A DNA stretch of 38,666 nucleotides from an uncultured Clostridia bacterium. Lineage in GTDB: Bacteria > Bacillota > Clostridia > Oscillospirales > Oscillospiraceae. How positions within the stretch are numbered: the stretch's first letter is position 1; each line of letters opens with the position of its first letter. Shown here piece by piece: positions 1,190 to 17,651 of this stretch. The position numbers were made by a program, and so were the translations under genes. The stretch covers positions 1 through 38,666 of the forward strand of contig CALERM010000103.1 in the NCBI GenBank assembly GCA_937907715.1. The letters run 5' to 3'. The notes below the pieces were generated by a model. It was not told the DNA's origin and made no database searches. It was given only the letters and a program-made list of their open reading frames with translations.

Positions 1190-2212
1190 TCACAGCTCCC
1201 CATACTTTTCCTTATACCGCTTCAGTTCCTCCATCGCCTTGACGAGATATTCTGAAGCGGCCTTCTGGTCTCCCCACAGCTGTTCCGGAATGACTTTCTG
1301 CAATGCCTTTTTGGTCGGCGCTTTGAACACGGTCTTTGGCTTCGTATCTGCAAACAGAAACGCGACGTCCTCTCGCGTCAAAACGTTGCTCTCCGGATCT
1401 TCCGCCGCCGCGACGCGCGTGTCATAGGTCTCTTTGAGGGCGCGCAGGGCGGCCGTGGTCAGCTTTTTCTTGCAATAGCTGGACAGCTCTTCCGGCTCGC
1501 TCGCCTGTCGGAGCAGTTCTATCAACCCGCGCTGGGTCGCCTTGTTCATGCGCGTCAGCGTCTGCGATGCCGCGGACACAGGGATACTTCCGCTGTCTGC
1601 CAGCGCGATAATTTCAGGAATGGCAATCGCCGGGATAAACTGTCGGGCACACTTGATAAAGGACGGCGAGGTCTGGTTCTGTTCTGCCAGCTGTGTGAGT
1701 GTGTCCTTTCCTTCCTTTGCCGTCTTTCCCTGATGCTTCTCCGCTTGGAACTGCATCTCAAACGCCATGCCCAATTCCGAGATCAATAATTGGTCTCTGC
1801 GGTGTACATTGGTCAAAACATAGGTCAAATCGCCCAGTGCAAAGGTGTTGGCCTTTACAGCCTGTAAATCCAAAATTGTGGCATTTAACGTGCTGCGCTC
1901 GGGATGTTTTTGCTGTACCAACCGTGCTGCGCGCGTGCGCTGCTTGCCGGACAACACCTCATACATGCCCGGCTGCTGTTCGGACGGGAACACAATGATG
2001 TTCTCTACCTGTCCGTCCCGCTCCAGGCTGTTCGCCAGCTGCTCCAGCTTGTCCTGCGAGTAATCACGGAAAATCGGATTGCCGTTCACATTCTCTCGAT
2101 GATACGGAATCAGCTTGTCCAGCGGAATCGAGTGGGTCGAACGGTTGCGCTGATCCTGAATGCGCTGGGCTGTGCCGCCTGTCGGAATAATCGGTTTGCC
2201 GCCTCGTGCCAT
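1190..2212 (-). CDS. parB: ParB/RepB/Spo0J family partition protein
   Basis: IPLDKL, LEQLANSLERDGQVENIIV, YEVLSGKQRTRAA (GxxRxxA CTP-binding patch), TNVHRRD; directly downstream of parA. Confidence 0.85.
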   Translation of the reverse strand: MARGGKPIIPTGGTAQRIQDQRNRSTHSIPLDKLIPYHRENVNGNPIFRDYSQDKLEQLANSLERDGQVENIIVFPSEQQPGMYEVLSGKQRTRAARLVQQKHPERSTLNATILDLQAVKANTFALGDLTYVLTNVHRRDQLLISELGMAFEMQFQAEKHQGKTAKEGKDTLTQLAEQNQTSPSFIKCARQFIPAIAIPEIIALADSGSIPVSAASQTLTRMNKATQRGLIELLRQASEPEELSSYCKKKLTTAALRALKETYDTRVAAAEDPESNVLTREDVAFLFADTKPKTVFKAPTKKALQKVIPEQLWGDQKAASEYLVKAMEELKRYKEKYGEL

Positions 2213-2213
2213 G

Positions 2214-2987
2214 TCACTTCACCGCCTTTACAAGCGCATCGACAAAGGCCTCATAATCCTTGAGCGCATTGTTCTTGCGATGCATCTGGAATACATTGGT
2301 GTGCATGGCTTCCGATTCACCAAACAATCCTTCTGCCAAGCGAATCCATTCCGGGAACACCTGACAGCCCATCTGCTGGGCGATGGTCTCCAATTCTCCG
2401 GCAATCGCCTTGCAGGCGCGCACGCGCTTGCTGGACATGGTAATCAAGAAGCCCAAGATGCGCAGATCCGGATTGGTGTTCTGCACATAGTACACCGTGT
2501 CAAAAAACGTCGGGATGCCGCGGATGCTCTGCGCGGTCGCCTTGGTCGGAATGACGATATAATCCGTCGCTTCCAAAGCTGCCGTTTGCAGCCAGCCGAG
2601 ATTTGGCGGCGTGTCAATCAAAATAAAGTCGTACTGTGCGCGCACCTCATCCACAATCTCCTTGATGGCAGACGTGCCGACGCCCAGCCGATCCATATCA
2701 TAGAGCAAAAAGGAAGCGGTAATCAAATCGCCGGACGTGGTATGTACGATGCTGTCCGGCACACTGAGATTCTCATCCATGATGAGATGATACAGCGAAG
2801 CCTCTCTTCCCTCTTCCTGCTGTTCAAAGTCAGGAACCATATACGAAGACGCAGTGGCCTGCGGGTCGGTATCAATCACCAGCACCGAATAGCCGCGGCT
2901 CAGCAGGCATCCGGCCGTTGCGACAACCGACGTCGATTTGCCCACGCCGCCCTTCTGATTGGAAAACGCAATGACAGAACAGCTCAT
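2214..2987 (-). CDS. parA: ParA family partition ATPase
   Basis: Deviant Walker A NQKGGVGKST, VIDTDPQ, FILIDTPP; 257 aa with no N-terminal HTH. Confidence 0.93.
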   Translation of the reverse strand: MSCSVIAFSNQKGGVGKSTSVVATAGCLLSRGYSVLVIDTDPQATASSYMVPDFEQQEEGREASLYHLIMDENLSVPDSIVHTTSGDLITASFLLYDMDRLGVGTSAIKEIVDEVRAQYDFILIDTPPNLGWLQTAALEATDYIVIPTKATAQSIRGIPTFFDTVYYVQNTNPDLRILGFLITMSSKRVRACKAIAGELETIAQQMGCQVFPEWIRLAEGLFGESEAMHTNVFQMHRKNNALKDYEAFVDALVKAVK

Positions 2988-3145
2988 CTTCCCACTTCCT
3001 TTTCTTCTATCGCGTCCATGCGCTCTTTCACGATCATACGAATGTAGCTCGCAACAGGTAAGCCCTTTTTCTCGGCTTCCCGTTCGATTTTGCTATATAA
3101 TTCAACCGGCCAGCGGACGGTCGTCAGCTTTGTATTGCCTGCCAT
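2984..3145 (-). CDS. small ribbon-helix-helix (CopG/Arc-like) DNA-binding protein, 53 aa
   Basis: MAGNTKLTTVRWPVELYSKIEREAEKKGLPVASYIRMIVKE has the RHH pattern. AGAGGTGA RBS before ATG 3145; stop overlaps the parA start. Confidence 0.8.
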   Translation of the reverse strand: MAGNTKLTTVRWPVELYSKIEREAEKKGLPVASYIRMIVKERMDAIEEKEVGR

Positions 3146-3168
3146 AAAAATCACCTCTTTATGCATCT

Positions 3169-3198
3169 ATTATATGCTGTTTGTCATCTATCCGTCAA
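3169..3198 (-). promoter_or_regulatory. sigma-A promoter for RHH-parA-parB
   Basis: TTGACG-18 bp-TATAAT on - strand; two ATAGATG direct repeats 21 bp apart overlap it (possible RHH operator). Confidence 0.7.
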
Positions 3199-3265
3199 GC
3201 AATACATGCAAAAAGATTTCAATGAAATTCAAAAGCATTCGTCACAGGGTGACATTCGTCGTGTC

Positions 3266-3400
3266 TATTTCCGTAATTTCGAAAATGGATATTACGGAAA
3301 TCGAAATTACGAAACCAGATACATATATAATATGATTTAGATATAAGACTCAGAGATATAATATTATTACTTACAAGAGATAGAGCATAGCTAGCTAAAA
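3266..3400. other. candidate replication origin (15-bp periodic iteron-like repeats plus AT-rich tract)
   Basis: TATTTCCGTAATTTC / GAAAATGGATATTAC / GGAAATCGAAATTAC / GAAACCAGATACATA in 15-bp register, IR ATTTCCGTAAT...ATTACGGAAAT, then an AT-rich run; lies between par and rep. Confidence 0.5.
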
Positions 3401-3405
3401 AAATC

Positions 3406-3434
3406 TTGACAAGTTATCAGACATCCGCTATAAT
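3406..3434 (+). promoter_or_regulatory. consensus sigma-A promoter for rep
   Basis: TTGACA-17 bp-TATAAT, perfect consensus. Confidence 0.85.
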
Positions 3435-3667
3435 GACAATACATAGTTATATTTGAATATTCTTTTTTTTCTTTTCTTGTTTTCTTATTTTCTTATTTTT
3501 TATCTTCTGCGCAATCAGTGCGTCTGCAAAAGCATACAGGACATATCGTATACATCATGTCCCCCTGATAGAAATGTATCCTTTTTGTATTGTAAGATTG
3601 TATGGAAGTGTTGTTGAAGAGTAACAGCACTTTTTTTGTGCAGAGATTACGATACGGAGGTGCCATC

Positions 3668-4642
3668 ATGGGTGTAGCAGTCAATTTAACTATCAATCGA
3701 ACAGAATATCAAACCGGTTTTACCAAGGTTCCGAACAGCCTGATTCATTCGCAAAAGATTTCTATGAAGGCGAAAATGCTGATGACCTACTTGATTGGTC
3801 AGCGCGACAGCTCGTTTACGCCTGTTTCGGAAAATGACCGGTGGACGATGACATTAAAAGGCCTGTCTCATGTGTTCAAAGAATCTATCGGCTGCATCAA
3901 GCGCTGCATGGATGAGCTCATGCGAGAGGGCTTTGTTGTACGTGTAGACGTGTTAAGCAAGCGAAATTTGCGCATTCGCAGCGAATATGTGGTCTTTGAG
4001 GAGCCAATTGCGAATACTGACGGCAAACCGCGCCGCATTCGGGAAGAAGAATTAAATAAGGGCGTAACCCTGCTGTCTGTCGCCAATCCGAACGGCGAGT
4101 TGTCTGCTGCACAGAGCAAAGAGCTGGAAAAAGACGCTTGCAGAGAAGTTGTCAAGGATATGATTGAAGAGGATACACTCAGTGAAGATTTCTCTCCGGA
4201 AGAGGCAGAAGAAGTGACAGATGCCATCTGTGATGCGATCTGCGACGACAAGACGATTTATATTGACGGAGCTTCCGTCACGCCGGAAGCGTGCAAGGAA
4301 GCCCTGTTTAGGCTGTCCCGTTGGGATGTCGAAAAGATTTTGGATACGGTACGACTGCGAAAAGACATCCGAAATCGCAAGCATTATGTTCTCGCCATGC
4401 TGTATCGAGCTGGCGTACATAAAAATTTCCCGACCGGAGAACGGTATACAGCCATGGATGAGATGCAGCTGCTGCTCGCTGCCGTGCGCCGTGGAGAACT
4501 GATAGACTGGTGGAACGATACCTTTGAACAACTGACGTCGCTGACCAAGTATTTGGCGCAGGCGTATATTTATCATGCGTATATGCATGACGAAACGTTG
4601 CTGCGCAGCATAGGACAACAGCTGAAAGGATTCGATTTCTGA
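3668..4642 (+). CDS. putative replication initiator (N-terminal HTH of phage/ICE replisome-organizer type + DUF6017-like C-terminal domain)
   Basis: FTKVPNSLIHSQKISMKAKMLMTYL...TLKGLSHVFKESIGCIKRCMDELMREGFV...EYVVFEEP; C-terminal VVKDMIEEDTL...KTIYIDG...DIRNRKHYVLAMLY. GGAGG RBS at 3656-3660 favours ATG 3668. Divergent from parAB. Confidence 0.75.
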   Translation: MGVAVNLTINRTEYQTGFTKVPNSLIHSQKISMKAKMLMTYLIGQRDSSFTPVSENDRWTMTLKGLSHVFKESIGCIKRCMDELMREGFVVRVDVLSKRNLRIRSEYVVFEEPIANTDGKPRRIREEELNKGVTLLSVANPNGELSAAQSKELEKDACREVVKDMIEEDTLSEDFSPEEAEEVTDAICDAICDDKTIYIDGASVTPEACKEALFRLSRWDVEKILDTVRLRKDIRNRKHYVLAMLYRAGVHKNFPTGERYTAMDEMQLLLAAVRRGELIDWWNDTFEQLTSLTKYLAQAYIYHAYMHDETLLRSIGQQLKGFDF

Positions 4643-4697
4643 GGGGGATACTATACCCATTTGGCTGTGTAACATAAAATGATTTTGCTGAATATAA

Positions 4698-4746
4698 CAA
4701 GAACCCACACGAGGTATACTAGGTATACTTCTCGTGTGGGTTCTTG
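4698..4746. terminator. long hairpin, probable bidirectional terminator after rep
   Basis: CAAGAACCCACACGAG / CTCGTGTGGGTTCTTG 16-bp perfect stem. Confidence 0.75.
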
Positions 4747-4753
4747 CGCTTTT

Positions 4754-4778
4754 ACTTCCGTTAATCATTAACGGAAGT
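4754..4778. repeat. solo copy of 25-bp palindrome (parS/iteron-like)
   Basis: ACTTCCGTTAA-TCA-TTAACGGAAGT perfect 11-3-11 IR. Confidence 0.9.
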
Positions 4779-4886
4779 GTATCGACAAGTTTCGAGACAA
4801 AGCAAAACACGCTATACAAGACACAATCGTCAAAAGTCTTGCACAGCGTGTTCCGCGTTTCTTATTTCTTTTTATCTTCTTCGAGT

Positions 4887-4915
4887 ATTATACAATGGAT
4901 TTCTGAAAAAAGCAA
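4887..4915 (-). promoter_or_regulatory. sigma-A promoter pointing left toward the rep 3' end
   Basis: TTGCTT-17 bp-TATAAT on - strand with AT-rich UP-like tract at ~4919-4945. Confidence 0.7.
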
Positions 4916-4990
4916 GCATTTTTTTTAATTAAATAAAAAAAATTTTCGACAGCACGCGACACAATAAAAGGCTGCTGTTTTTTCTGCCCT

Positions 4991-5522
4991 GCTTTCGTTA
5001 ATCGTTAACGGAAGTGAGAGTTCGCGCGTCTGCCCTGCCGGTACGGACTTTCGTTAATTGTTAACGGAAGTGAGGGTTCGCGTGTCTGCCCTACCGGTGC
5101 GGACTTTCGTTAATTGTTAACGGAAGTGGAAGTTCCCGCGTCTTCCCTTTCGGTGCGGACTTTCGTTAATTGTTAACGGAAGTGGAAGTTCCCGCGTCTT
5201 CCCTTTCGGTACGGACTTTCGTTAATTGTTAACGGAAGTGGAGAGTTAACGCGTCTGCCCTACCGGTGCGGACTTTCGTTAATTGTTAACGGAAGTGGAG
5301 AGTTCGCGCGTCTTCACTACCGGCACGGACTTTCGTTAATTGTTAACGGAAGTGGAGATTCGCGCTTCTGCCCTACCGGTGCGGACTTTCGTTAATTGTT
5401 AACGGAAGTGGAAGTTTCCGCATTTGCCCTACCGGTACGGACTTTCGTTAATTGTTAACGGAAGTGGAGAGTTAACGCGTCTGCCCTACCAGTGCGGACT
5501 TTCGTTAATCGTTAACGGAAGT
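4991..5522. repeat. tandem array of 10 palindromic cores, 56-57 bp period (candidate parS centromere or iteron array)
   Basis: Core ACTTTCGTTAAT(T/C)GTTAACGGAAGT starts at 4991, 5047, 5103, 5159, 5215, 5272, 5329, 5385, 5441, 5498; the 31-32 bp linkers are homologous but diverged. Confidence 0.95.
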
Positions 5523-5639
5523 TAGGCATTGCCGAAATCGCCGCTGCATTGGAACGGGGAGAGGTGGCAGAGCCGCATGAGGACGACGTGTCCGCGATTC
5601 ACATGGCGAGAAAAAATTTCACTGATTTATCAGATATGA

Positions 5640-6011
5640 TATAATCAAAGCAAGAAGAAGCTGTGCATTCATGAGCAGGATGAAGCGCATTATTTTTCCG
5701 CCGAGCTGTGGGGGACACTAGAGCGCACGCCGAAGGACAGCATCATTGTATTTTATTCCACCGAATATGATGAACACAGCGAGATCACCGATGTCGATTT
5801 CAATTTTGTCGCGCGGGGCGAGTTTGAGAAAACCTATGATGTAGTGGAAAGATCATCAGAGGAATCCCTTACAGTCAAAAAACTCCAGCCGTTCACACGC
5901 AGGAACCGCTGGAGTTTTCCGTTTCGCAAGTTTAGGAGGAAAATGGTATGTATGACGTTCATACAGATGCAAAAGTATTGTGGGAGTATCATCATCTCCA
6001 TCAGCCCTTGA
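5640..6011 (+). pseudogene. start-less gene fragment
   Basis: Open frame ...HEQDEAHYFSAELWGTLERTPKDSIIVFYSTEYDEHSEITDVDFNFVARGEFEKTYDVV... reads like protein but has no usable start codon or RBS (in-frame TGA at 5637). Confidence 0.4.
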
Positions 6012-6607
6012 AAAAGGCAGATGCTATTCTTGGTTTTGGCAGTCATGATCTGCATGTTGCCGAACGAGCAGCCGAGTTATATCTTGCCGGATATGGGAAA
6101 TACATTATTTTTACTGGTGGCTTAGGGCGTATTACAAAAAATATTTGGAGGAAGCCAGAAGCGATGGAATTTGCTGAAGTGGCAGTAAAAAGAGGCGTTC
6201 CTCGGGAGAAAATCTTTACCGAATCGGCATCGACAAATACCGGAGAAAATATCCGCCATACGAAGCTTTTGCTAAAGCAAAAACAGCTGTCGTTTTCCGA
6301 CTATCTGGTTGTAGATAAGCCGTTTAAGGAACGGAGAATCTATGCAACGCTCAAGAAACAATGGAGCGACTTGGATTTTCGCGTAACCTCTCCACAGAAT
6401 ACCTATGAGGAATATTACCGGTATTATCAGCAATCGGAGCAACTGCATGTCGAGGATTTTCTCAATATTCTGGTCGGTGATTTGCAGCGTATTAACCTTT
6501 ATGGGCGGAATGGATTTCAGATTCCGCAGGAGATTCCATCTGATGTATGGGCAGCATATCGGAGACTGGTAGACGCTGGATTTGACAAGCAGCTCATACC
6601 GGAGTGA
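5948..6607 (+). CDS. YdcF/DUF218 (SanA/ElyC-like) family protein
   Basis: ADAILGFGS, IIFTGGLG, ESASTNTGENI motifs; AGGAGG RBS. Confidence 0.88.
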   Translation: MYDVHTDAKVLWEYHHLHQPLKKADAILGFGSHDLHVAERAAELYLAGYGKYIIFTGGLGRITKNIWRKPEAMEFAEVAVKRGVPREKIFTESASTNTGENIRHTKLLLKQKQLSFSDYLVVDKPFKERRIYATLKKQWSDLDFRVTSPQNTYEEYYRYYQQSEQLHVEDFLNILVGDLQRINLYGRNGFQIPQEIPSDVWAAYRRLVDAGFDKQLIPE

Positions 6608-6629
6608 AGCAATACCGAACATTCTTTTT

Positions 6630-6656
6630 AACTTCCGTTAATCGTTAACGGAAGTT
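6630..6656. repeat. solo copy of the array palindrome, followed by a T-tract (may double as terminator)
   Basis: AACTTCCGTTAA-TCG-TTAACGGAAGTT then TTGTTTTTTT. Confidence 0.9.
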
Positions 6657-6728
6657 TTGTTTTTTTCTTTCAAAAAAACTTGAAACTTTCTCTTGTATAA
6701 TAGATGGGTTATCTGAGAGAAAGGGCGT

Positions 6729-7583
6729 GTGATGATGCGGCTATTGACAGAGCAGCAGCTAAAAGCATTTGAAAAAAGCCTTGTTCTAGAGGAGAAGAGC
6801 AAGGCGACGATAGAAAAATATATGCGCGATGTCCGCGCGTTTTATGCGTTTGTGTCCGGTCAAGAGGTGGAGAAACGGCAAATACTTGCATACAAACAGC
6901 ATATACTCGCGCAACAATACGCGGCGAGAACTGTGAACTCTATGCTGTGCAGTGTGAATCGGCTGCTGCGCTTTTTGGGGTGGAATGATTGTGTGGTGAA
7001 GGGCTTGCGGATCCAGCGGCAAGTCTATCAATCGGAACAAAAGGAGCTGACCAAAACCGAGTTTCAGAGATTATTACAGGCGGCAGCGCGCAAGCCACGG
7101 CTGCAAATGCTGTTGAAAACGATGGGATGGACAGGCATTCGTGTTTCAGAACTACAGTATTTTACGGTAGAGCGTGTAAGGACGGGAAGGATTTCCATTT
7201 CCTGCAAAGGAAAAATTCGGACAATTTTGCTTCCAAAGGTGTTGCGGAGAAACCTATTAAAGTATTGCGAGAAACGCAACATTGATACAGGGATTATTTT
7301 CCGCACGCGCAGCGGAAAGCCACTGGATCGGAGCAACATTTGGGCAGCGATGAAAAAATTATGTGCGGCGGCGAACGTGTCGAAAGAAAAAGTGTTTCCG
7401 CACAATATAAGAAAATTATTTGCCAGAACATTTTATTTTATGGCGAAGGATATTGCGCGTCTAGCTGACATATTGGGACATAATAGCATCGAAACAACAC
7501 GAATTTATATCATGACGACAGAAAAAGAAAATCAAAAGTTTTTAGACGAGATGGATCGCCTGCTTTTTCCATCGGGCGGATAG
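6729..7583 (+). CDS. tyrosine-type site-specific recombinase (Xer/integrase family)
   Basis: TGIRVSEL (R), CKGK (K), FPHNIRKLFA (HxxR), LGH, TTRIY (Y); N-terminal SAM-like domain. Confidence 0.95.
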   Translation: MMMRLLTEQQLKAFEKSLVLEEKSKATIEKYMRDVRAFYAFVSGQEVEKRQILAYKQHILAQQYAARTVNSMLCSVNRLLRFLGWNDCVVKGLRIQRQVYQSEQKELTKTEFQRLLQAAARKPRLQMLLKTMGWTGIRVSELQYFTVERVRTGRISISCKGKIRTILLPKVLRRNLLKYCEKRNIDTGIIFRTRSGKPLDRSNIWAAMKKLCAAANVSKEKVFPHNIRKLFARTFYFMAKDIARLADILGHNSIETTRIYIMTTEKENQKFLDEMDRLLFPSGG

Positions 7584-7633
7584 ACAGAAAATCAGAGGGC
7601 GTGCTGGGAAAAACAAAGCAGGACAAATATAGA

Positions 7634-7661
7634 TAACTGCATAATTTGGATTATGTGGTTA
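7634..7661 (+). other. left dif-like recombination site
   Basis: TAACTGCATAA-TTTGGA-TTATGTGGTTA, 11-6-11 architecture like dif (CATAA-N6-TTATG). Confidence 0.85.
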
Positions 7662-7743
7662 ATGATCTGACATAAGAGAAATTTGACACACAGCGTATCT
7701 GTTAAAGATATATTACAAATATTTAAATAGCTCCAATACGACC

Positions 7744-7772
7744 ATGATAGCACAGCATATTATGTAAAGCAA
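7744..7772 (-). promoter_or_regulatory. sigma-A promoter inside the invertible segment, currently pointing left
   Basis: TTGCTT-17 bp-TATCAT with extended -10 TG on - strand. Confidence 0.7.
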
Positions 7773-7919
7773 GGAGCTTTTTTCGTATTTTTGGATGCAT
7801 TTTGGGTGATTTACTCAAAGTTTGTTTTTGCTAATACAGTGACAGGATAAGGGGATTGCTATCTATCAATTTTTTCAAAAAATGCATATGTATTTCTATT
7901 TTATCTGGCTGTTAAAAAA

Positions 7920-7947
7920 GTACCACATAATCCAAATTATGTGATAC
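7920..7947 (-). other. right dif-like recombination site (inverted)
   Basis: GTACCACATAA-TCCAAA-TTATGTGATAC; spacer TCCAAA is the reverse complement of the left spacer TTTGGA. Confidence 0.85.
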
Positions 7948-8085
7948 ACGCAGCGCGTCACACCCGGACTTCATTTGAGAAACCCGCACACCAAAAATTT
8001 TCCCTCCATTTTTTCTCAAAAAATGTTGGCGTGTTGAAATCTGGTATGCTGTACTTGCAAGCCACAAAAGAAAGGACGATGACTC

Positions 8086-8460
8086 ATGATTGGACGACCC
8101 AGAGCAATAGGAAATACGAGATACGCTGTTTTGCAGCGCGAAGATCTGCTTTTGATCTATCAGTCGGGATATGATTGGCTGGAGGATAAGCGACTGAGCA
8201 AGTTTCCAGCTGATGCGCTGGTTTATGCGACGTGGGAGCAGGTGCAGCAAGCGGTTATCGCGCGATTTCACGAGCAAAAGCTGTATTGGAGTGTCATGCT
8301 GGACGAGCTGACGCCTGTTTATGGCGTGGCGGTGGACAAGCAAACATTGCTTGCTTATGGCTTTGAAGACATCCCTGACAATTGGTGCGGATGCCTGTTT
8401 CACGAGGGAGACCGGCTGCGCCGCGCGAAAATGTGGGAGCTGGGAATAGACTATTGTTAA
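8086..8460 (+). CDS. hypothetical protein, 124 aa
   Basis: AAAGGA RBS, protein-like composition; no motif recognised. Confidence 0.65.
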   Translation: MIGRPRAIGNTRYAVLQREDLLLIYQSGYDWLEDKRLSKFPADALVYATWEQVQQAVIARFHEQKLYWSVMLDELTPVYGVAVDKQTLLAYGFEDIPDNWCGCLFHEGDRLRRAKMWELGIDYC

Positions 8461-8502
8461 ATTCCACCAGAAAAAAAACAACAACTTTGTGCAAACTGCA
8501 CA

Positions 8503-8530
8503 TAAACCTTTTAGGCTTTTTTTACGTCTA
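8503..8530 (+). promoter_or_regulatory. ECF-type sigma promoter
   Basis: TAAACC-16 bp T-rich spacer-CGTCTA, matching the AAC/CGT ECF pattern; upstream of an operon encoding an ECF sigma. Confidence 0.65.
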
Positions 8531-8620
8531 GTATATAGAAGCAAACGATGGAAGATTTCTGCGACCTGTCGAGTAGAAATTTCACCATACATATTATTTT
8601 TATTGAAGGAGGCTTTCATT

Positions 8621-8674
8621 ATGAAGCTGAAAAAGACGATGCTTACGCTCGCAATGGCAGCAGTTGTTACATAA
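8621..8674 (+). pseudogene. truncated secreted-protein gene (signal-peptide stub, 17 aa)
   Basis: GAAGGAGG RBS then MKLKKTMLTLAMAAVVT*. Confidence 0.55.
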
Positions 8675-8766
8675 CGATTTCATTCGTTAACAGAAACAAG
8701 GACATACGCATCCTGCCGCGACGGAGCGATCTGTCGCGGTGGGAACACAAAAAAGGAGGAAAAACG

Positions 8767-9549
8767 ATGAGAACAGGACATAAATTCTGCATGTATTGCG
8801 GGCAGGCCATCAGTGAGGACGCGAAATTTTGCCCGCTGTGCGGAAAGAGCCAGAAGATAGACCGACCGGAAGAGACAGAAAAACAGGTGCCCTCTGCTGT
8901 ACAGGAAAAGGCGCAGACCATGACGCATACGATCAAGAACACCCTGTCGGATGTTTCGCAAAAAGTACAGGAGGCGGATTTGGCAGACAAGGCGAAATCC
9001 GCTGCGCATACTGCGAAAGCGACATGGGATCGTGCAGGGGAAACGAGAAAGAAAAATGAGAGAAAAAAGAAAAATCATCTGTTTGAGGAGACCACATTTG
9101 AAGGCAGAGATGCGGCGCAGGAGTTTCTCGACAAGAATGCAGCAACCATGAAACGAAGCAAGTTGGGATTACAGGTTGCTATTATTGCATCCATCTTCGG
9201 CGTGTTTTGCCTGCTGTTGGCTTTTGACGTGGTCTCGATAGATTTACCGATCCCGGTAGAAAATGCGATGCTGCTCATTTGTTTGGGTGGCTCTCTCGTT
9301 TCGTATATCATGGCAGGCGGTATTTTGAAATCCATTCGCTATTCGTTTCGCATTGCCGTCGTTGGATGGTTTATCGTTCCGGTTTTTCCGTTTGATTTGT
9401 GCATCGGGTTAATTGCTTTGATACTCTCGATTTTTGCGTTTATTTTTGTTCCGATTGTCAGCGTTGGCATCAATTATGTACAGACCAAAAAAGATATTGA
9501 GGATGCGGAGCTGTTTATCCGCATTTTGCAGCAGTCGGGGAGCTTGTAA
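8767..9549 (+). CDS. zinc-ribbon domain membrane protein
   Basis: FCMYCG...AKFCPLCG zinc ribbon and several C-terminal hydrophobic helices; AGGAGG RBS favours ATG 8767 over 8548. Confidence 0.85.
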   Translation: MRTGHKFCMYCGQAISEDAKFCPLCGKSQKIDRPEETEKQVPSAVQEKAQTMTHTIKNTLSDVSQKVQEADLADKAKSAAHTAKATWDRAGETRKKNERKKKNHLFEETTFEGRDAAQEFLDKNAATMKRSKLGLQVAIIASIFGVFCLLLAFDVVSIDLPIPVENAMLLICLGGSLVSYIMAGGILKSIRYSFRIAVVGWFIVPVFPFDLCIGLIALILSIFAFIFVPIVSVGINYVQTKKDIEDAELFIRILQQSGSL

Positions 9550-11562
9550 ATGGGAAGAGAAAACTTTCAGACGGAATGGGTGCAAAGAGCCAGAGAACAG
9601 GATCAAGAGGCGTTGGAAGCGCTATATGTGTTCTGTTATGGCGAGGTATACGCGACAATCCGAGAAGCAACCGGCGCGGATAGGGATACCATCAAGGACA
9701 TTTTGCAGGAAACCTATATCAGAGCCTTTACCAAGCTGGATACGCTGATAGATGACAGCAAGTTTCCAGAATGGATCCATTCCATTGCACACAATGCTGC
9801 GAAAGACTTTGTGCGAAAATACAAACCGCATCTGTTTGATTCGATTGATGCGGTGGATGAAGACGGCGTGCCGGAGTTACAGCTGGAAAATCAGGATATA
9901 GCGACCATGCCGCAGATCCAAATGGATCAGCAGGAGACCACGCGCCTGGTGCGGGAAATTCTGGATAGCCTGTCCGCCGGGCAGCGACTGGCGATTACGA
10001 TGTACTATTATGAACACATGACCATCGAGGAAATTGCGCGCCATTGCGGCGTGCGCGAAGGCACCATTAAGGCGCAGTTACATTTCGGCAGAGAGAAAAT
10101 GAAAGAAAAAGTGCTGGAACTGGAGAAACAAGGCACCAAGCTGTACGGTCTGCTTCCGTTCCCATTCTTTATCTTGTTGCTGCGCAATCTGGACAACGCG
10201 CAGATCCCTGTGGATTACACGCTGTGGAACCGGATTTTACAGCAATGCGGCATACAGGCAGCACCGGTACAGACGGCAGACACCCCGTCTTCCGATGCCA
10301 CGCCCAGCGCGCAGGAGGCTGGGTCTGCCGCGACGACTTCGGCGGCAAAAACAGCCGGCGCGACGGCAGGCAGTGCGGTCAAAGGAAAAATCGCCGCCGG
10401 ACTTGTCGCTGCTTTGATACTGGGCGGCGGCGGAACCGTCGCGGGCATTCAGTACATGAACCATCAGGCGCAAACGGGCATTGTACAGGAGCAGGAACAG
10501 ACCGCCTCGAATCCGGACGCGCCGGAACAGAAGGAATCTCCGACGGTCCCGACGCCGACAAGCAGTACCGATTCGCCGGAGGTCGAGCAATATCGAACGC
10601 TGCTGAACACCTTGCAGGAGGACGGCACGTTTCTGCAATATGCACACCTGAAGGATCTCAACGGAGACGGAACGCAGGAGCTGATTCTCTTACACGACAA
10701 CACCGACTTGACGATCTATCAGCTGAAACAGAATCAGCCGAAAGCGGTGTATGAGAAACGCGCGGTCAACGGATTTATGTGCTATGAAGAAGCGGTGACC
10801 GATGAGACCTATGAGCAGGCATACGAGGAGATGGGAAAAGAGGCTGCCGGAGTAAAAATTGACTGCAACCCGGCGGAGCATAAACTTTCCGTCACGCCGC
10901 TCGATGACAATTGGCTGGATGAGACGCATTCGTTTATCGTTGACTGCGATACATGGGACGAAGTGAGCGAGGAAGATTACGAAGATGGAAGCACCAGCGG
11001 CTATCAAAACATCGGTCTCGCAGGAACGTCTCAGGTACAAGGATTCTCGGATCAGCTCAGCTACCTGCTGGGAAAATCCGACACCATGGCGGCGTATGAG
11101 CGGTTCCTGCAAAGCGAAGATCGCTTTTTGGGCGCAGAGGCTTGTTATGAGTACATCTATTTGGATGACGACGATGTACCGGAGCTGGTTATTTCGGAAA
11201 ATTCCTCGTTTGGCGGACAAGTGACGCTCTATCGCTGCAAAGAAGGACTCGTCATACCGGTAAAGGATCAGCTCGGCTCCAATGGAGACATCTATTACAA
11301 GGAGCGGGGAAATCAGCTGCTCAGTAAAGTCAATAAAGATGCGGGAAAGGCTGTTCTGTATCAGCTGCAAGAGGATGCACTCGTTGCACAGCACACGTCG
11401 TCATTTTCCATGGACGCGGAGGGCAATCTGCTGTATGAGATTGACGGAAAGAGCGTGACGACGGAGCAGGGCGAAACATTCTGGGATATGGACGGCACAG
11501 CGTATTTGGCCGCCGGTCAGGACGGCAAAAATGCGGTGCATTTCCATGACAATGACTATTAA
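9550..11562 (+). CDS. ECF sigma-70 factor fused to a transmembrane helix and a large acidic extracellular domain
   Basis: Region 2 (DILQETYIRAFTKL...FPEWIHSIAHNAAKD), region 4 (MTIEEIARHCGVREGTIKAQL), TM IAAGLVAALILGGGGTVAGI, then DLNGDGTQEL / LDDDDVPEL motifs. Confidence 0.88.
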   Translation: MGRENFQTEWVQRAREQDQEALEALYVFCYGEVYATIREATGADRDTIKDILQETYIRAFTKLDTLIDDSKFPEWIHSIAHNAAKDFVRKYKPHLFDSIDAVDEDGVPELQLENQDIATMPQIQMDQQETTRLVREILDSLSAGQRLAITMYYYEHMTIEEIARHCGVREGTIKAQLHFGREKMKEKVLELEKQGTKLYGLLPFPFFILLLRNLDNAQIPVDYTLWNRILQQCGIQAAPVQTADTPSSDATPSAQEAGSAATTSAAKTAGATAGSAVKGKIAAGLVAALILGGGGTVAGIQYMNHQAQTGIVQEQEQTASNPDAPEQKESPTVPTPTSSTDSPEVEQYRTLLNTLQEDGTFLQYAHLKDLNGDGTQELILLHDNTDLTIYQLKQNQPKAVYEKRAVNGFMCYEEAVTDETYEQAYEEMGKEAAGVKIDCNPAEHKLSVTPLDDNWLDETHSFIVDCDTWDEVSEEDYEDGSTSGYQNIGLAGTSQVQGFSDQLSYLLGKSDTMAAYERFLQSEDRFLGAEACYEYIYLDDDDVPELVISENSSFGGQVTLYRCKEGLVIPVKDQLGSNGDIYYKERGNQLLSKVNKDAGKAVLYQLQEDALVAQHTSSFSMDAEGNLLYEIDGKSVTTEQGETFWDMDGTAYLAAGQDGKNAVHFHDNDY

Positions 11563-11585
11563 ATGAAAGATATAAGGAGCAAAAA

Positions 11586-12731
11586 ATGAAACATTGGAAA
11601 TTTGGACTGGGAGCAGGATTGCTCGTTACGGCGGCCATCGGCTTGAGCGGATGCGGGAGAACAACCATTGATTTACAGGATTATCTCACCTATGAATTTA
11701 CCGGTGTGAACGGGTACGGTGAGATTGACTACCGCATCCAGAGTGATTCTATGGTGGACAACAACCTCGGCGCGTTTGGCATCTCTGGCAACAGCGATGC
11801 GGAGATCTCGAGCAGCATTGACACCTATATGGATGTCGCAAACCTGCATGGATCCTGGGACAAAAAAGAAAATCTTTCTAACGGAGACAATGTCGTTTTT
11901 ACTTGGGATGAGGACACGGTACATACGATTGAAGAAAAGTACCACGTCAAGTTGAAAGACGATGCCATCAAAGCAACCGTCGATGGCTTGCAGGATGTGG
12001 AAACATATGACGCCTTTCAGGGCTTAAAGGTGAGCTTTGACGGGTATGCGCCGTCCGGTACAGTCAGTTTAGATAACTCGGATTGCGTCCTCTCCTCGCT
12101 GGAATACACGGCGAAACCGAGTGAACATCTGAAAAATGGCGACAAAGTAACCGTCACTGTCACGGTGCCGGAGGACTGCGCGAAACAGTATGGCAAGGTT
12201 CCGAAGGAAGTGTCCAAACAGTATACGGTTTCCGGTCTGGATGGCTTTGTCACCTCGGCGGCAGATATTCCGGACGACATCATGAATGACATGAAAAAGC
12301 AGGCTGAGGACACCTTCAAGGCAGAGTTTGCGAAATCCGCCGGTGAAGATGAGAAACTGGACAGCATGACCTATGTCGGCAATTACTTTTTGACGGAAAA
12401 AGAGGACGCGGTCAAGAGTTTCTGGTCTTTCAATGCTGGCAATGCCATCTATTTGGTGTATAAAACCGATTATGTTGACAATGGAAAATCCGTCAGCGGA
12501 TATTGGTATTGCCGCTTTAGCGATGTGAAGATTTTGGCAGATGGGACATACAGTGTAGATACTTCGTCGTATCGAACAACAAACACTTGGGATAGCACGA
12601 TTGGCGAAGAGCATGAGTACCCGGGCTATCCGGATGTTACTTCTCTCTTTAATCACTGTGTGACGGAAAATATTGAATCGTACAATTACGAAGACAATGT
12701 CGGAAAGGGAGATGGCAGCGCGCAGTCGTAA
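11586..12731 (+). CDS. hypothetical lipoprotein with two repeated beta-rich domains
   Basis: Signal peptide with lipobox LSGC; repeats FTGVNGYG...NLSNGDNV...TVDGL and FDGYAPSG...HLKNGDKV...TVSGL. Confidence 0.8.
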   Translation: MKHWKFGLGAGLLVTAAIGLSGCGRTTIDLQDYLTYEFTGVNGYGEIDYRIQSDSMVDNNLGAFGISGNSDAEISSSIDTYMDVANLHGSWDKKENLSNGDNVVFTWDEDTVHTIEEKYHVKLKDDAIKATVDGLQDVETYDAFQGLKVSFDGYAPSGTVSLDNSDCVLSSLEYTAKPSEHLKNGDKVTVTVTVPEDCAKQYGKVPKEVSKQYTVSGLDGFVTSAADIPDDIMNDMKKQAEDTFKAEFAKSAGEDEKLDSMTYVGNYFLTEKEDAVKSFWSFNAGNAIYLVYKTDYVDNGKSVSGYWYCRFSDVKILADGTYSVDTSSYRTTNTWDSTIGEEHEYPGYPDVTSLFNHCVTENIESYNYEDNVGKGDGSAQS

Positions 12732-12752
12732 AGCCTGCCGCGAGAATCCATC

Positions 12753-12806
12753 AAAAAAACAAATCCTCTGGCCGAGCCCTAATGGGACGGTCAGAGGATT
12801 TTTGTT
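12753..12806. terminator. bidirectional intrinsic terminator
   Basis: AAATCCTCTGGCCG / CGGTCAGAGGATTT stem flanked by A- and T-runs between convergent genes. Confidence 0.75.
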
Positions 12807-12819
12807 AGAATATTCTTTC

Positions 12820-14265
12820 TTACACCGAGTGACTTTGTACTTGCCGTTCCTTTTCCCGCTGTTCGCGTTGCTTGCGGGCGGCCTCCTGCCGCAGTTGGAA
12901 GTAAGCGGGATGCTCCATCGCCATGACTTTTTCCAGACTCAGCGGCTGAAACAGCGGCATACGCAGCTTGAATTTTGACCACAGTGCCGCATAAATTGCC
13001 AGAATCACAAAAATAACGGCGTCAATGGTCAAAATCGCGGCGCGCTGTGCGGGATCGGTAGAGATGTTGACCACCATGTACACCATACCGGCGATGCCGA
13101 TGAGCGGAATGACCGGCCCAAATGGCAGCTTAAACGTGCGCGGCGCCTTGGGCAGACGGCGGCGCAGCACCAGCAGATTGATGTGTGAGATGATATACGA
13201 GACCATCCAGAACACCGATGCCACCAGAATCATAAACGAGAGCGAGGATGCGCTTGCCAGTCCGGTCGCTTCGATGAGCAAAATCACCGTGCCGTAAATC
13301 AAAATGCCGATGTACGGCGCACCACGGCGATTGGTTTTTTGAAACAGAGAGGGAAGCATATTCATCTTTGCCATGCCATAGCAGATCTTTGTGATGCTGT
13401 TGATGACGGAATTCTGCGTGCTGATTGCGGCGAGCACCGTGACAAGACCGATCCATGCCTTGCCGACATTGCCGAGCAGACTGATGCCGTATAGAATATG
13501 CGGCGTGTCCGATGCGGCGAGCGCCGACCAGCCGGTGTAATGGTACAGACCCAACACCATGACGATCTGAATCACACAGATGATGCCGAGGCTGAGGAAC
13601 ATGCCGAGCGGGATGTTGCGGCGCGGATTGTCCACATATTTGGCAATCGGGATGATAAACTCGACGCCGATGAACAGCCAGAAGGCTGCAGCTGCCATGT
13701 TGACGCCGTCCATCACGTTGTCGGTCAGCGCAAACGACTGAGAGACTTCCGCGCCGGTACCGGCACCCACCGCACCGATGACACCGAGCAGCAGCAGCGA
13801 GCCGATGAGCAGAAACGCGACAACGTTCTGGATTTTGGCGAACATATCGACGCCAAATAAATTGATGACAATTAAAATCGCGGTCAGAGCCACGCTGATG
13901 ACCGATGCCGGAATGCCCACGCCGGTCAGCTCCTTGATGGCGAGGCCAAACATCGCACCTTCGGACGGAGCCATGAGGGCATTACAGACAATGTATCCGC
14001 CGACCATGGATACCAGCGTGACAAAGGGGCCGAGACCCGCGAGGGTATACTGCGCCAGACCGCCGGTCAAATTCGGCATGAGCGCATTCAGCTCCGCGAG
14101 CGAGGCGGCAGTAATCATATTCAGCGCGCACGCCAGCACAATCGAGACGATAAACATGCCGCCGATGGACGCAGCGCCCTGACATAGCGACATCAGGCAG
14201 GTTGTCGCAACGATCAGGCCGACACCGGTGGAGACGACGCTGAACAGGCCTAATTTTTTCTCCAT
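12820..14265 (-). CDS. APC family amino acid/amine permease
   Basis: ~12 hydrophobic segments, LAELNALMP...GG, FWLFIGVEF, NPRRNIP, PRTFKLP. Confidence 0.9.
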   Translation of the reverse strand: MEKKLGLFSVVSTGVGLIVATTCLMSLCQGAASIGGMFIVSIVLACALNMITAASLAELNALMPNLTGGLAQYTLAGLGPFVTLVSMVGGYIVCNALMAPSEGAMFGLAIKELTGVGIPASVISVALTAILIVINLFGVDMFAKIQNVVAFLLIGSLLLLGVIGAVGAGTGAEVSQSFALTDNVMDGVNMAAAAFWLFIGVEFIIPIAKYVDNPRRNIPLGMFLSLGIICVIQIVMVLGLYHYTGWSALAASDTPHILYGISLLGNVGKAWIGLVTVLAAISTQNSVINSITKICYGMAKMNMLPSLFQKTNRRGAPYIGILIYGTVILLIEATGLASASSLSFMILVASVFWMVSYIISHINLLVLRRRLPKAPRTFKLPFGPVIPLIGIAGMVYMVVNISTDPAQRAAILTIDAVIFVILAIYAALWSKFKLRMPLFQPLSLEKVMAMEHPAYFQLRQEAARKQREQREKERQVQSHSV

Positions 14266-14288
14266 AATGTATTCGTTCCTTCCAAGAA

Positions 14289-14636
14289 TCAGGTGAGGGC
14301 GTCCGCACCGTCTTCGCCAGTGCGGACACGGATGACATCAGTGACATCAGAGACAAAAATCTTTCCGTCTCCGATATGACCGGTGTACAGACATTTCTTG
14401 ACGACGTCCTCAATTTTGGGAACCTTTTCTGCTGGGACATACAAAATAATCATCTGCTTGGGCAGCAGCTCCATGATTTTATTCTCTTTGGTGGCAAACT
14501 CCATGGCACCCTTCTGCACGCCGCAGCCCAGCGCCTGCAGCACGGTCATGCCGGTGACGCCGACCTTGCTCAGCTCGATGCGCAAATCCTCCAATTTAGA
14601 CATGGATGTCACGATTTCTACGCGGGAAATAGTCAT
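14289..14636 (-). CDS. P-II family nitrogen regulatory protein
   Basis: GVTGMTV, GCGVQKG, LLPK, TGHIGDGKIFVSDV, IRVRTGE; AGGAG RBS favours ATG 14636. Confidence 0.92.
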   Translation of the reverse strand: MTISRVEIVTSMSKLEDLRIELSKVGVTGMTVLQALGCGVQKGAMEFATKENKIMELLPKQMIILYVPAEKVPKIEDVVKKCLYTGHIGDGKIFVSDVTDVIRVRTGEDGADALT

Positions 14637-14654
14637 AGTCAATGCTCCTTTCGG

Positions 14655-15797: not shown

Positions 15798-15817
15798 GGT
15801 AAATCCATCCTTTCCAG

Positions 15818-15869
15818 AAAAAAAGAAAAAGGCGCTGCGTACCCGTCCGGTACACAACACCCTTGTTGT
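15818..15869 (-). promoter_or_regulatory. leader attenuator: terminator overlapped by an ANTAR-like hexaloop hairpin
   Basis: Terminator GGTGTTGTGTACC/GGTACGCAGCGCC + T-run; competing hairpin ACAAC-AAGGGT-GTTGT. Confidence 0.65.
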
Positions 15870-15896
15870 TCGTGCTTTGTTTTCTAAGTTGCCTCT

Positions 15897-15925
15897 ATTG
15901 TAGCAGAGATGCCTGCGTTTGTCAT
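15897..15925 (-). promoter_or_regulatory. sigma-A promoter for the OCD-PII-permease operon
   Basis: ATGACA-17 bp-TACAAT with extended TG. Confidence 0.65.
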
Positions 15926-15948
15926 TTTGCATGTTGTAAAAAATGAAA

Positions 15949-15971
15949 TGTCTATTTTTCGTCAATTTTGT
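15949..15971 (-). promoter_or_regulatory. putative operator, copy 1
   Basis: ACAAAATTGACGAAAAATAGACA on - strand; 22/23 identical to 17568-17590. Confidence 0.7.
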
Positions 15972-16020
15972 GCGCAGACGCAAAGCGTAATCCAATTGTA
16001 TGACAAGAATTGGCATATTA

Positions 16021-16049
16021 TTGACAAATAGGGGCGGCGGATTTATACT
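16021..16049 (+). promoter_or_regulatory. sigma-A promoter for the regulator gene
   Basis: TTGACA-17 bp-TATACT. Confidence 0.75.
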
Positions 16050-16084
16050 GGGAACAGAATATGACACAGAAAGAAGGGAAAAAT

Positions 16085-17554: not shown

Positions 17555-17567
17555 TTGACGCACATGG

Positions 17568-17590
17568 ACAAAATGGACGAAAAATAGACA
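17568..17590 (+). promoter_or_regulatory. putative operator, copy 2
   Basis: ACAAAATGGACGAAAAATAGACA. Confidence 0.7.
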
Positions 17591-17642: not shown

Positions 17643-17651
17643 AGACGTGTC

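Follow-up and report, generated by a model that had tools for sequence, protein, structure and literature searches.

A probable replication and partition module of a large plasmid from uncultured gut Clostridia, with a DUF6017-family candidate initiator

Which kind of genetic element is served by a locus in which partition genes and a gene of the DUF6017 family diverge from an AT-rich spacer and are followed by an array of palindromes? The locus lies at positions 1190-6656 of a stretch of DNA from an uncultured Clostridia bacterium. The window analysed here is that whole stretch, a 38.7-kb contig (C103) that is the longest of the 252 contigs in a 1.81-Mb, 81%-complete metagenome-assembled genome (MAG). 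A preliminary description read the locus as the origin region of a megaplasmid or chromid with an initiator of the type employed by phages and by integrative and conjugative elements (ICEs), rather than as part of a typical ICE. The present analysis supports the conclusion that the window is not an ICE and that it contains the origin region of a large secondary replicon with an ICE/phage-type initiator. We consider it likely that 1190-6656 is the basic replicon, that is, the replication and partition core, of a plasmid that is large (about 115 kb), low in copy number and probably circular and that resides in uncultured gut Clostridia, the host assignment being uncertain.

All the evidence comes from contigs of MAGs and metagenomes. 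The principal comparisons involve four related contigs in other GTDB MAGs (G061:C8, G062:C3, G063:C25 and G064:C3) and a distant metagenome relative, L050. The 38 open reading frames (ORFs) of the window were scanned against Pfam. Gene calls outside the window are crude and, in the case of G061:C8, come from a greedy procedure that takes ORFs of at least 100 amino acids (aa) and misses those spanning five 20-kb boundaries.

The replication and partition module

The core of the locus consists of two divergent transcription units and the DNA between them.

1190-2212, minus strand: parB, 340-aa protein of the ParB_N type, candidate binder of the palindromes (PF02195, PHROG)
2214-2987, minus strand: parA, 257-aa Walker-type partition ATPase without an N-terminal helix-turn-helix (HTH) (AAA_31, PHROG, KGGVGKS)
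2984-3145, minus strand: gene for a small ribbon-helix-helix (RHH) protein, 53 aa when read from the second ATG, at the head of the operon (CopG_antitoxin, RHH_5, Arc-like PHROG)
3169-3198, minus strand: promoter of the par operon, TTGACG-18-TATAAT (11/12 consensus positions; kept in relatives)
3199-3405, no strand: inter-promoter control region, candidate oriV (inverted repeats and AT-rich block)
3406-3434, plus strand: promoter of the initiator gene, TTGACA-17-TATAAT (12/12 consensus positions)
3435-3667, plus strand: leader of the initiator mRNA, about 230 nucleotides (nt) (8-bp repeat, conserved 3' part with ribosome-binding site)
3668-4642, plus strand: rep, 324-aa DUF6017-family protein, probable replication initiator (PF19481, PHROG, fold)

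The divergence of an RHH-parA-parB operon and a DUF6017-type gene from an AT-rich spacer, as first described, is borne out by Pfam matches and by base composition: the spacer (3146-3667) has a GC content of 32.2% and the par operon one of 54.3%. ParA matches AAA_31 (131.5 bits, 4.2e-38), the ParA-like PHROG (3.9e-49) and, under its cut-off of 180, the ParA_partition profile NF041546 (6e-29, 101 bits). The deviant Walker A motif in its translation, KGGVGKS, fits KGGxxK[ST]. For ParB, the Pfam match to PF02195 (ParB_N) is marginal (26.6 bits, cut-off 26.3) and that to TIGR00180 (29.5 bits) lies under the cut-off of 58.45. The match to a PHROG ParB-like partition protein extends across residues 19-322 (1.2e-13), and the translation contains GKQRTRAA, a variant of the arginine box GERRxRA that is canonical for ParB. 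By tblastn, ParB is 97-98% identical in the close relatives, 69% in G064:C3 and 42% in L050. The ORF 2984-3166 matches CopG_antitoxin (5.2e-5) and RHH_5 (0.0049) in Pfam as well as an Arc-like repressor PHROG (3.1e-6). Alignment with relatives moves its start from 3166 to 3145, where the ATG is preceded by AAAGAGGTGA, a conserved ribosome-binding site. The RHH protein is 91-100% identical in 9 relatives and is probably the repressor of the par operon.

The start of the DUF6017 gene was likewise corrected, from 3602 to the ATG at 3668, with a conserved GGAGG upstream and homologues of 324-333 aa. The match to PF19481 (32.9-33 bits, cut-off 27) covers residues 153-249 of the 324-aa form, and the same family was found in all 71 aligned relatives. 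The protein combines an N-terminal winged helix (residues ~14-118) with a helical C-terminal half. Its N-terminal 130 residues match the PHROG families of DnaD-like helicase loaders (1.2e-7) and replication initiation proteins (6.1e-6). Structural alignment with VIA-align of the winged helix from an AlphaFold (AF2) model of the initiator (pLDDT 83.7) yielded the primosome protein DnaB (5wtn, Z 8.3; 176 residues, root-mean-square deviation (rmsd) 9.3), a RepA_N initiator (4pta_D, Z 6.7; 85 residues, rmsd 3.8), DnaD-NTD (8ojj, Z 5.8) and domain 1 of RctB (Z 5.5). These Z values are middling by the scale of the tool and therefore support the initiator reading without proving it. Foldseek with the same model returned weak rows only, with the same proteins among its local matches, and searches of PDB sequences gave nothing meaningful with the single sequence and, with a profile, a COMM domain as the best match (0.015). 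A DDBH2-like C-terminal domain, guessed from an NxxxYxxxL motif, is unsupported, the best score (Z 5.2) belonging to unrelated helical proteins, although a distant relation is conceivable.

At the N-terminus, 56 of the 71 aligned relatives carry HTH_36 (PF13730; best 5.6e-14). The window protein has no match to PF13730 at E<=0.01 in its N-terminal 120 residues, and its homology to HTH_36 therefore runs through the alignment only. PF06970 (RepA_N) has no match at E<=0.01 in the window protein or in the 71 aligned proteins. Within the window rep gene (3668-4642), TRF detects no internal tandem repeat, and there are only weak 10-12-nt pairs.

Close relatives of the initiator (71-97% identity) come exclusively from metagenomes and MAGs. 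A HMMER pass over 1.84 billion representatives returned 490 proteins at E<=0.001. About 8 full-length clusters are at least 34% identical to the window initiator, followed by a gap to E ~1e-13, so that the large family contains a small subfamily to which the window protein belongs; one 90%-identity cluster comprises 436 member sequences. In PLSDB, the initiator is best matched by ICE copies, at 24.7-26.1% identity across 70% of its length, and DUF6017-like genes occur in three 'Bacteriophage sp.' records (26-27% identity), with one Atlas cluster labelled viral. Together with the presence of a distant version of the module in a phage-like contig, described below, this agrees with the initiator type originally proposed. 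'DUF6017' is mentioned by no paper in the literature searched. The protein is probably a DnaD/RepA_N-like initiator, which suggests a likely function for an unstudied family.

Between its two promoters, the spacer contains inverted TTTCCGTAAT/ATTACGGAAA repeats (I1, I3) at 3255-3322 and a block rich in AT (3318-3400; GC content 24%). The block TACATATATAATA..TAGATATAAGACT is nearly invariant in 4 lineages, including L050, in which the initiator is only 34% identical, and its ATATAAGACT motif is tandemly repeated in L050. This block is non-coding and yet better kept than the proteins, as befits a cis-acting core, and is therefore the best origin candidate; the spacer is probably the origin, with the AT-rich core as the best candidate for oriV. 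The initiator promoter is kept in 5/5 contigs and is recognisable in L050. The leader between this promoter and rep has no match to an Rfam family at gathering score and contains an 8-bp pyrimidine repeat, TTCTTATT, in 6.5 copies at 3460-3508 (TRF). The length and sequence of this repeat differ among close relatives, its flanks being conserved.

A chromosomal origin was rejected: DnaA boxes are not enriched (12 in the window versus 6.96 expected, 0 within 3167-5522), neither dnaA nor dnaN was found in the window, and the only DnaA-family match in the genome is weak (35.4 bits) and lies on the 2,065-bp contig C147, so that the dnaA of this genome is probably unassembled.

Palindromes and the candidate centromere

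Downstream of rep, the locus contains palindromes, both single and arrayed, and two further features.

4698-4746, plus strand: terminator-like hairpin after rep, with a 16-bp perfect stem (I5; conserved in G064:C3)
4754-4778, no strand: single perfect palindrome, ACTTCCGTTAAT-C-ATTAACGGAAGT (same place in relatives)
4860-4991, no strand: AT-rich stretch adjoining the array, 29.5% GC, the unwinding element if the array were part of an iteron origin
4992-5522, no strand: array of 10 palindromes with a 56-57 bp period, candidate centromere (parS array) (TRF, pattern search)
6630-6656, no strand: single perfect palindrome followed by a T-run, at the left edge of a variable insert

The 25-bp palindrome, ACTTCCGTTAA-N3-TTAACGGAAGT, occurs in 12 copies in the window and on no other contig of the 252 in the genome. 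The pattern CGTTAAYNRTTAACG, with at most 1 mismatch, gives 12 matches (one at 4759, ten at 4996-5517 and one at 6636), whereas 0.03 would be expected by chance and none of 100 shuffles contained more than 1; this confirms the array reported after the DUF6017 gene. TRF assigns the array a score of 767, with 9.4 copies and 88% matches. The palindrome at 6630-6656, which may double as a terminator, has an equivalent site in G061:C8 at 78207. Throughout the window and its relatives, dispersed perfect single palindromes are intergenic and lie 1-7 kb from the array.

A comparison of 117 sites and 78 units from 16 sources, located with a search pattern that consists of the inner 15 bases, gives a conservation (majority fraction) of 98.3% for the palindrome arms, 80% for the central three bases and 82.5% for the array spacers of 29-32 bp. 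Although absent from the search pattern, the outermost five bases of either arm reach 96-100%, apart from one position at 70%. The array spacers (window 5017-5047 and repeats) are themselves constrained, with a sub-motif ~CTTC..CCCT.CCGG.GCGG that is 90-100% conserved at many positions across clades and may represent a second binding site or a structural constraint. The number of copies varies: 17 in G061:C8, 3 in G063:C25 and 4 in G062:C3, a contig that ends inside the array. Complete arrays of relatives have 3-17 copies. Arrays in metagenome loci, some of them cut by the contig end, have 2-8 copies with a 54-55 bp period.

The layout extends to L050, a 132,660-bp metagenome contig with a GC content of 39% in which the initiator is 34%, ParA 45% and ParB 42% identical to the window proteins. 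The gene order is that of the window, with an RHH-like ORF (by eye), ParA and ParB sharing a strand, the initiator encoded on the opposite one, and an array following it, here composed of 6 palindromes ACTTTTGTTAA-TT-TTAACAAAAGT with 57-67 bp spacing. The half-site has co-varied, ACTTTTGTTAA in L050 differing at 2 positions from ACTTCCGTTAA in the window, and the spacers are unrelated. The neighbours in L050 (positions 1-20960) include an endolysin, a tail protein, a reverse transcriptase that is possibly part of a diversity-generating retroelement, an NAD-dependent DNA ligase and an IS-type transposase. Given these phage-type genes, L050 is probably a phage-plasmid.

On balance, the array reads best as a sopC-like centromere, an iteron or copy-control role being the rival. 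As judged from sequence, ParB is modestly favoured as the candidate binder, the initiator is possible and the RHH protein unlikely, because single sites are scattered through intergenic regions, the palindromes are long and unlike iterons, and the Butyricicoccus version (G064:C3) keeps rep without an array. parS sites are typically scattered, and dispersed single palindromes up to 7 kb away suit parS better than iterons.

Evidence for a separate replicon

The assignment of the locus to the origin region of a secondary replicon, put forward in the preliminary description, holds on the evidence of the conserved module, an accessory-only 114-kb relative, skew, composition and the synteny of contig ends. 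The four GTDB contigs with the module show nucleotide identities of 93-94% and 73-77%. The close copies (93-94% nucleotide identity, initiator 97-99%) belong to three GTDB MAGs labelled 'bacterium', Eggerthellaceae and Anaerotignum, and the initiator in the version from a Butyricicoccus MAG is 75% identical. Contigs from other assemblies that bear the module are 22-114 kb in length. In addition, 15 metagenome contigs carry the module with an initiator 90-96% identical, and the module family recurs in gut metagenomes (17 loci). None of the genomes of the 43 other species in the genus contains the module. Such discordance among bin taxa is expected plasmid behaviour and thus supports a separate replicon. 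PLSDB (72,556 records) contains no close relative, its best ParB matches covering at most half of the protein.

In composition, the window stands apart from the bin: its GC content is 51.2%, against 58.1 +/- 1.5% for the 73 contigs of at least 8 kb, that is, 4.6 standard deviations (SD) below the mean, and its tetranucleotide distance (0.0238) is the largest of the 73, the other 72 having 0.0087 +/- 0.0025 with a maximum of 0.0201. The compositions of the window and G061:C8 are nearly identical (tetranucleotide distance 0.0055), and the two have ~25 kb of cargo in common beyond the module. The second compositional outlier of the bin is C67 (23,189 bp, 52.9% GC). Megablast of the four related contigs against the 252 bin contigs found nothing outside the window contig. 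In four sequencing runs with small word shares (0.09-0.20), the matching contigs were short, mostly less than 95% alike and of low depth, and showed no informative joint.

The gene content is accessory. The 95 ORFs of G061:C8 (114,271 bp) include transporters, regulators, catabolic enzymes, a toxin-antitoxin-like pair and a nonribosomal peptide synthetase/polyketide synthase (NRPS/PKS) cluster, and no ribosomal, tRNA-synthetase, conjugation, phage, transposase or known Rep family at E<=1e-8, with 27 of the 95 ORFs unmatched in Pfam. In the window, 0 tRNAs and no Rfam family at gathering score were detected. The earlier statement that conjugation, phage-structural and transposase genes are missing stands in the form that Pfam found no such families in the 38 window ORFs; given that 10 of these are unmatched at the thresholds used (3 of the 10 resembling spurious overlapping frames), such genes are described as 'none found' rather than 'absent'. 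The case against a typical ICE is equally sustained, with no relaxase, coupling protein or type IV secretion system (T4SS) detected by Pfam in the 38 window ORFs and 95 G061:C8 ORFs, and a recombinase that is not conserved. The term 'megaplasmid or chromid' is retained in part: a large plasmid is indicated, of ~115 kb rather than many hundreds of kb, and a chromid is not, no core genes having been found and the composition being unlike that of the chromosome.

The estimate of ~115 kb comes from synteny. In G062:C3, the module is followed by homologues of G061:C8 103-108 kb and then directly by homologues of G061:C8 5.5-33 kb. This contig is thus collinear across the ends of G061:C8, so that these ends would be adjacent on the map, which implies a circular map of roughly 115 kb. 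The question of circularity raised at the outset thus has a divided answer, with this collinearity on one side and the lack of terminal overlap in five contigs, detailed below, on the other.

A strand asymmetry switches at the module. The predicted change in GC skew is present, from -0.106 in the 2501-3500 bin to +0.121 in the 3501-4500 bin of the window, and the sign flips at the module in 5/5 contigs. As described previously, genes mostly point away from the spacer (in our own gene list, 25 of 30 to its right on the plus strand and 4 of 5 to its left on the minus strand). In G061:C8, GC skew is negative at 57-81 kb and positive at 84-114 kb and 1-39 kb, and the regional sign of third-codon-position skew is independent of gene strand in 3 of 4 regions (for example, +0.056 for plus-strand genes and +0.064 for minus-strand genes at 1-40 kb).

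A proposed mechanism

If the locus is a plasmid basic replicon, it may work as follows. The DUF6017 protein would be made from the consensus promoter with its 230-nt leader, and its N-terminal winged helix would bind repeats in the AT-rich inter-promoter region. The initiator would then open the nearly invariant AT-rich block and recruit the host helicase-loading and primase machinery, in the manner of DnaD/RepA_N-type initiators, giving theta replication, mostly bidirectional, from about 3.2-3.4 kb. The RHH protein would repress the par operon. ParB would load on the 25-bp palindromes, that is, the 10-copy array and the dispersed singles, and ParB with the Walker-type ParA would segregate the copies, the array acting like sopC of plasmid F.

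Alternative explanations

Several observations weigh against the plasmid reading or against parts of it. The C-terminal half of the initiator, modelled alone (pLDDT 95.4), has no clear solved relative (best Z 5.2, Foldseek E of at least 1), and DUF6017 genes are typical of ICEs. No terminal overlap exists in the window, G061:C8, G062:C3, G063:C25 or G064:C3, and no circular or complete record of the plasmid family was found; hence we infer circularity and autonomous replication, as we do copy number, the exact origin and the pairing of proteins with sites. The skew switch coincides with divergent transcription, and counter-oriented genes in the window and G062:C3 have third-position skews of +0.017 and +0.019, versus +0.11 to +0.13 for co-oriented genes. 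With the counter-oriented genes near zero, part of the skew signal must reflect gene orientation. In G061:C8, the cumulative-skew maximum lies at 40-57 kb and not opposite the module, which therefore points to unequal replication arms or to a recent rearrangement of the cargo, and L050 shows no skew switch. With regard to the array, G064:C3 retains the module with one degenerate palindrome and no array, so that the array is not indispensable. Where present, the array is downstream of rep and away from parB, which counts against ParB as its binder, and abuts the 29.5%-GC stretch, as iteron origins do.

The best of the alternatives retains the plasmid replicon and reassigns its parts: the array would be the field of the initiator (iterons, or an incA-like locus for copy control and handcuffing), the origin would be at 4860-4991, and the centromere of ParB would lie elsewhere, for example in the 3255-3322 repeats. 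We regard this as possible, if doubtful. It would account for an array that lies directly downstream of rep, away from parB and against an AT-rich stretch, and that likewise follows rep in L050. Moreover, winged-helix dimers are able to read palindromes, half-site-like sequences occur between the promoters in both lineages (TTCCGTAAT in the window, TGTTAATAAC repeats in L050), and the highly variable number of array copies is reminiscent of incompatibility loci. Among the features of iteron-type origins, AT-rich elements are present at 3318-3400 and 4860-4991; DnaA-box enrichment is not observed, and the repeat units are palindromic with a 56 bp period, whereas iterons are 17-22-bp direct repeats. 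Perfect single sites scattered 1-7 kb away between genes, the presence in G064:C3 of rep without an array, and the fact that the best-conserved non-coding DNA is the spacer rather than the array are also difficult to reconcile with this scheme, as is the nature of the 15-bp repeats in ICE-type relatives, which are intragenic and of quite different sequence.

A second alternative, which we find improbable, departs further from the plasmid reading. The window could derive from a non-conjugative genomic island or a decayed ICE integrated in the chromosome, par and rep serving transient replication of the excised form or persisting as relics. A tyrosine recombinase 2 kb from the module, the typical presence of DUF6017 genes in ICEs (with several copies in genomes of the genus), the lack of a closed circle and a cargo of ordinary metabolism are in line with this possibility. 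However, the recombinase is absent in 11/11 related contigs or loci, no core gene appears in the 114 kb of G061:C8, synteny is collinear across the ends of that contig, and the switch in skew and strand bias spans tens of kb on both sides. An integrated element also fits poorly with the extreme compositional deviation, the discordant bins, module genes that are all intact and highly conserved, and a window in which neither a tRNA nor an att-like flank was found.

That the window belongs to a phage-plasmid, in other words a prophage maintained in plasmid form, seems to us very unlikely. In L050, the same module does have an endolysin, a tail protein and a reverse transcriptase as neighbours, and DUF6017-like genes are found in the 'Bacteriophage sp.' records and the viral-labelled Atlas cluster, but no capsid, terminase, portal, tail or lysis family was detected in the 38 window and 95 G061:C8 ORFs, a search made with Pfam only, to which 27 of the 95 have no match. 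Finally, a chromid or secondary chromosome with essential genes, suggested by metabolic cargo that is atypical for a plasmid and by the incomplete sampling of the replicon in the genome of the window, can practically be dismissed, given that no core gene was found in 95 + 38 ORFs, and given a GC content 4.6 SD below the bin mean with a composition unlike that of the chromosome, the occurrence of the module in 0/43 species of the genus and the lack of tRNA and rRNA in the window.

Neighbouring genes and cargo

Two genes lie to the right of the array.

5948-6607, plus strand: gene of the DUF218/YdcF family, conserved neighbour of the array (PF02698, 6.4e-16)
6729-7583, plus strand: Xer-like tyrosine recombinase (Phage_integrase, 79.4 bits, 3.5e-22; XerA/XerD-like matches under cut-offs)

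The DUF218 gene is found beside the array in 6 relatives (87-91% identical). The tyrosine recombinase, mentioned with the locus in the preliminary description, is confirmed by Pfam and is not part of the module: no homologue was found by tblastn at 1e-5 in 11 related contigs or loci, and the gene is contained in a variable 6.2-kb segment (6663-12820), in place of which G061:C8 has ~470 bp. On these grounds, the recombinase is placed outside the module, as variable cargo that may be either an inserted small element or, in the window's variant, a multimer resolvase. The same segment encodes a 124-aa ORF, a zinc-ribbon membrane protein (8548-9549), a 670-aa fusion protein with sigma-70 regions 2 and 4 (9550-11562) and a 381-aa ORF, and may as a whole be a small integrated element or a resolvase cassette.

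Farther to the right, a conserved cargo cluster (12820-21117; 95% identical in G061:C8) includes an amino-acid permease, a 470-aa ornithine cyclodeaminase/mu-crystallin protein extended at its N-terminus, a 497-aa ORF that matches nothing in Pfam, and Pyr_redox_2 and DAO flavoproteins, to which the relative adds a 2Fe-2S protein; it looks like an opine or imino-acid catabolic unit. The region 23199-30261, also present in G061:C8, contains a two-component system followed by VTC-domain, DUF4956, Cthe_2159, GT2/GtrA and NAGPA genes. In G061:C8, a hybrid PKS/NRPS cluster that is absent from the window adjoins parB (85.5-98.8 kb; L026:5504-18832) and comprises a PPTase, thioesterases, a KS-ACP protein, adenylation domains, a condensation domain and a nitroreductase fusion.

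Significance and comparison with known systems

Plasmids of strictly anaerobic gut Clostridia are poorly known, and their replicons are raw material for genetic tools in organisms for which none exist at present, for example butyrate producers. The reading proposed here would give DUF6017 a testable function, would have one module serving both a plasmid and a probable phage-plasmid, and would explain, by way of plasmid nature, why contigs with the module land in bins of unrelated taxa. It also calls for caution in MAG-based metabolic inference, since in a relative an NRPS/PKS cluster and catabolic operons form part of the cargo beside parB.

The locus is of a known kind, a plasmid replication and partition core; what is new is the uncharacterised initiator family, a sopC-like array in an unusual place and the lack of a PLSDB counterpart. 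In plasmid F, sopC consists of tandem repeat units, each with an inverted repeat, and works with a ParB_N-type binder and a Walker-type ATPase. The window resembles SopA-SopB-sopC in that its array is tandem, with an inverted repeat in each unit, and in its ParB_N-type and Walker-type genes. Unlike sopC, the array has a 56-bp unit with a 25-bp palindrome and is located beyond rep rather than directly after parB. Furthermore, the window ParA, at 257 aa, is of the short form and lacks an N-terminal HTH, the operon begins with a separate RHH gene, and single sites are dispersed.

The DUF6017 genes of Clostridia ICEs (DUF6017-PcfB-VirD4; Vescimonas, Pusillibacter and Monoglobus records) belong to the same Pfam family and show the same domain order as the window gene. 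They differ in being located beside coupling-protein and T4SS genes, with no parAB in the stretches viewed, and in containing internal repeats, about 4-7 in-frame 15-bp tandem copies (CCAACATTGGAAAAT-like), in part overlapping, where a linker joins the winged helix to the DUF6017 domain (L017:7298-7402 in Monoglobus, L016:7298-7402 in Pusillibacter, L015:7295-7384 in Vescimonas). These repeats look like intragenic iterons of the RepA_N kind. In the window subfamily, in contrast to the ICE copies, the gene stands beside parAB and the sites are external to it. Tentatively, and with less than even confidence, DUF6017/HTH_36 could be envisaged as a large unstudied family of initiators serving Clostridia ICEs, phage-plasmids and large plasmids. 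The origin of the ICE forms would be intragenic, at the in-frame 15-bp iterons, and that of the plasmid and phage-plasmid subfamily would have moved to the AT-rich inter-promoter block, coupled to RHH-ParA-ParB with a palindrome array perhaps for segregation and copy control.

The closest analogy for the initiator is with the RepA_N theta replicons of Gram-positive bacteria (pSK41, pTZ2162; PF06970), which also have an initiator of ~320 aa built from an N-terminal winged helix, a linker and a C-terminal domain made of helices; a DnaD-like structure of the N-terminal domain is a possible further likeness, at middling Z values. In a review of staphylococcal plasmid replication (PMC5703833), the pSK41 Rep is described as having 319 aa, an N-terminal winged-helix domain that binds to Rep boxes located within the rep gene itself, and DnaD resemblance in both domains; the linker repeats of ICE-type DUF6017 genes recall these intragenic boxes. 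The window initiator differs in having no PF06970 match and no internal tandem repeats, and in a C-terminal half without a clear solved relative. According to the same review, the Rep of pPR9 carries pfam13730 as its N-terminal domain, and a mini-replicon can be sustained by its rep region. The N-terminal HTH_36 of 56 of the 71 aligned DUF6017 relatives is a feature in common with the pPR9 type, a likeness that is by description only and does not extend to the C-terminal domain, which in pPR9 is pSK41-type and not DUF6017, or to the window protein, which has no PF13730 match.

At the level of the whole element, the 'Hodor' megaplasmids of the human gut (PMC12934698) are large plasmids of gut Bacillota known from metagenomes, with ParA/ParB and an AT-rich putative oriV, all of which they share with the window family. 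They are distinguished by Rep_3, a size of 211-389 kb and conjugation, whereas the window family has a DUF6017 protein, a size of ~115 kb and no transfer genes found. By the threshold of '>100 kb' for megaplasmids that is used in a paper on gut isolates (PMC12056005), the window family, at ~115 kb, would just reach the rank of megaplasmid.

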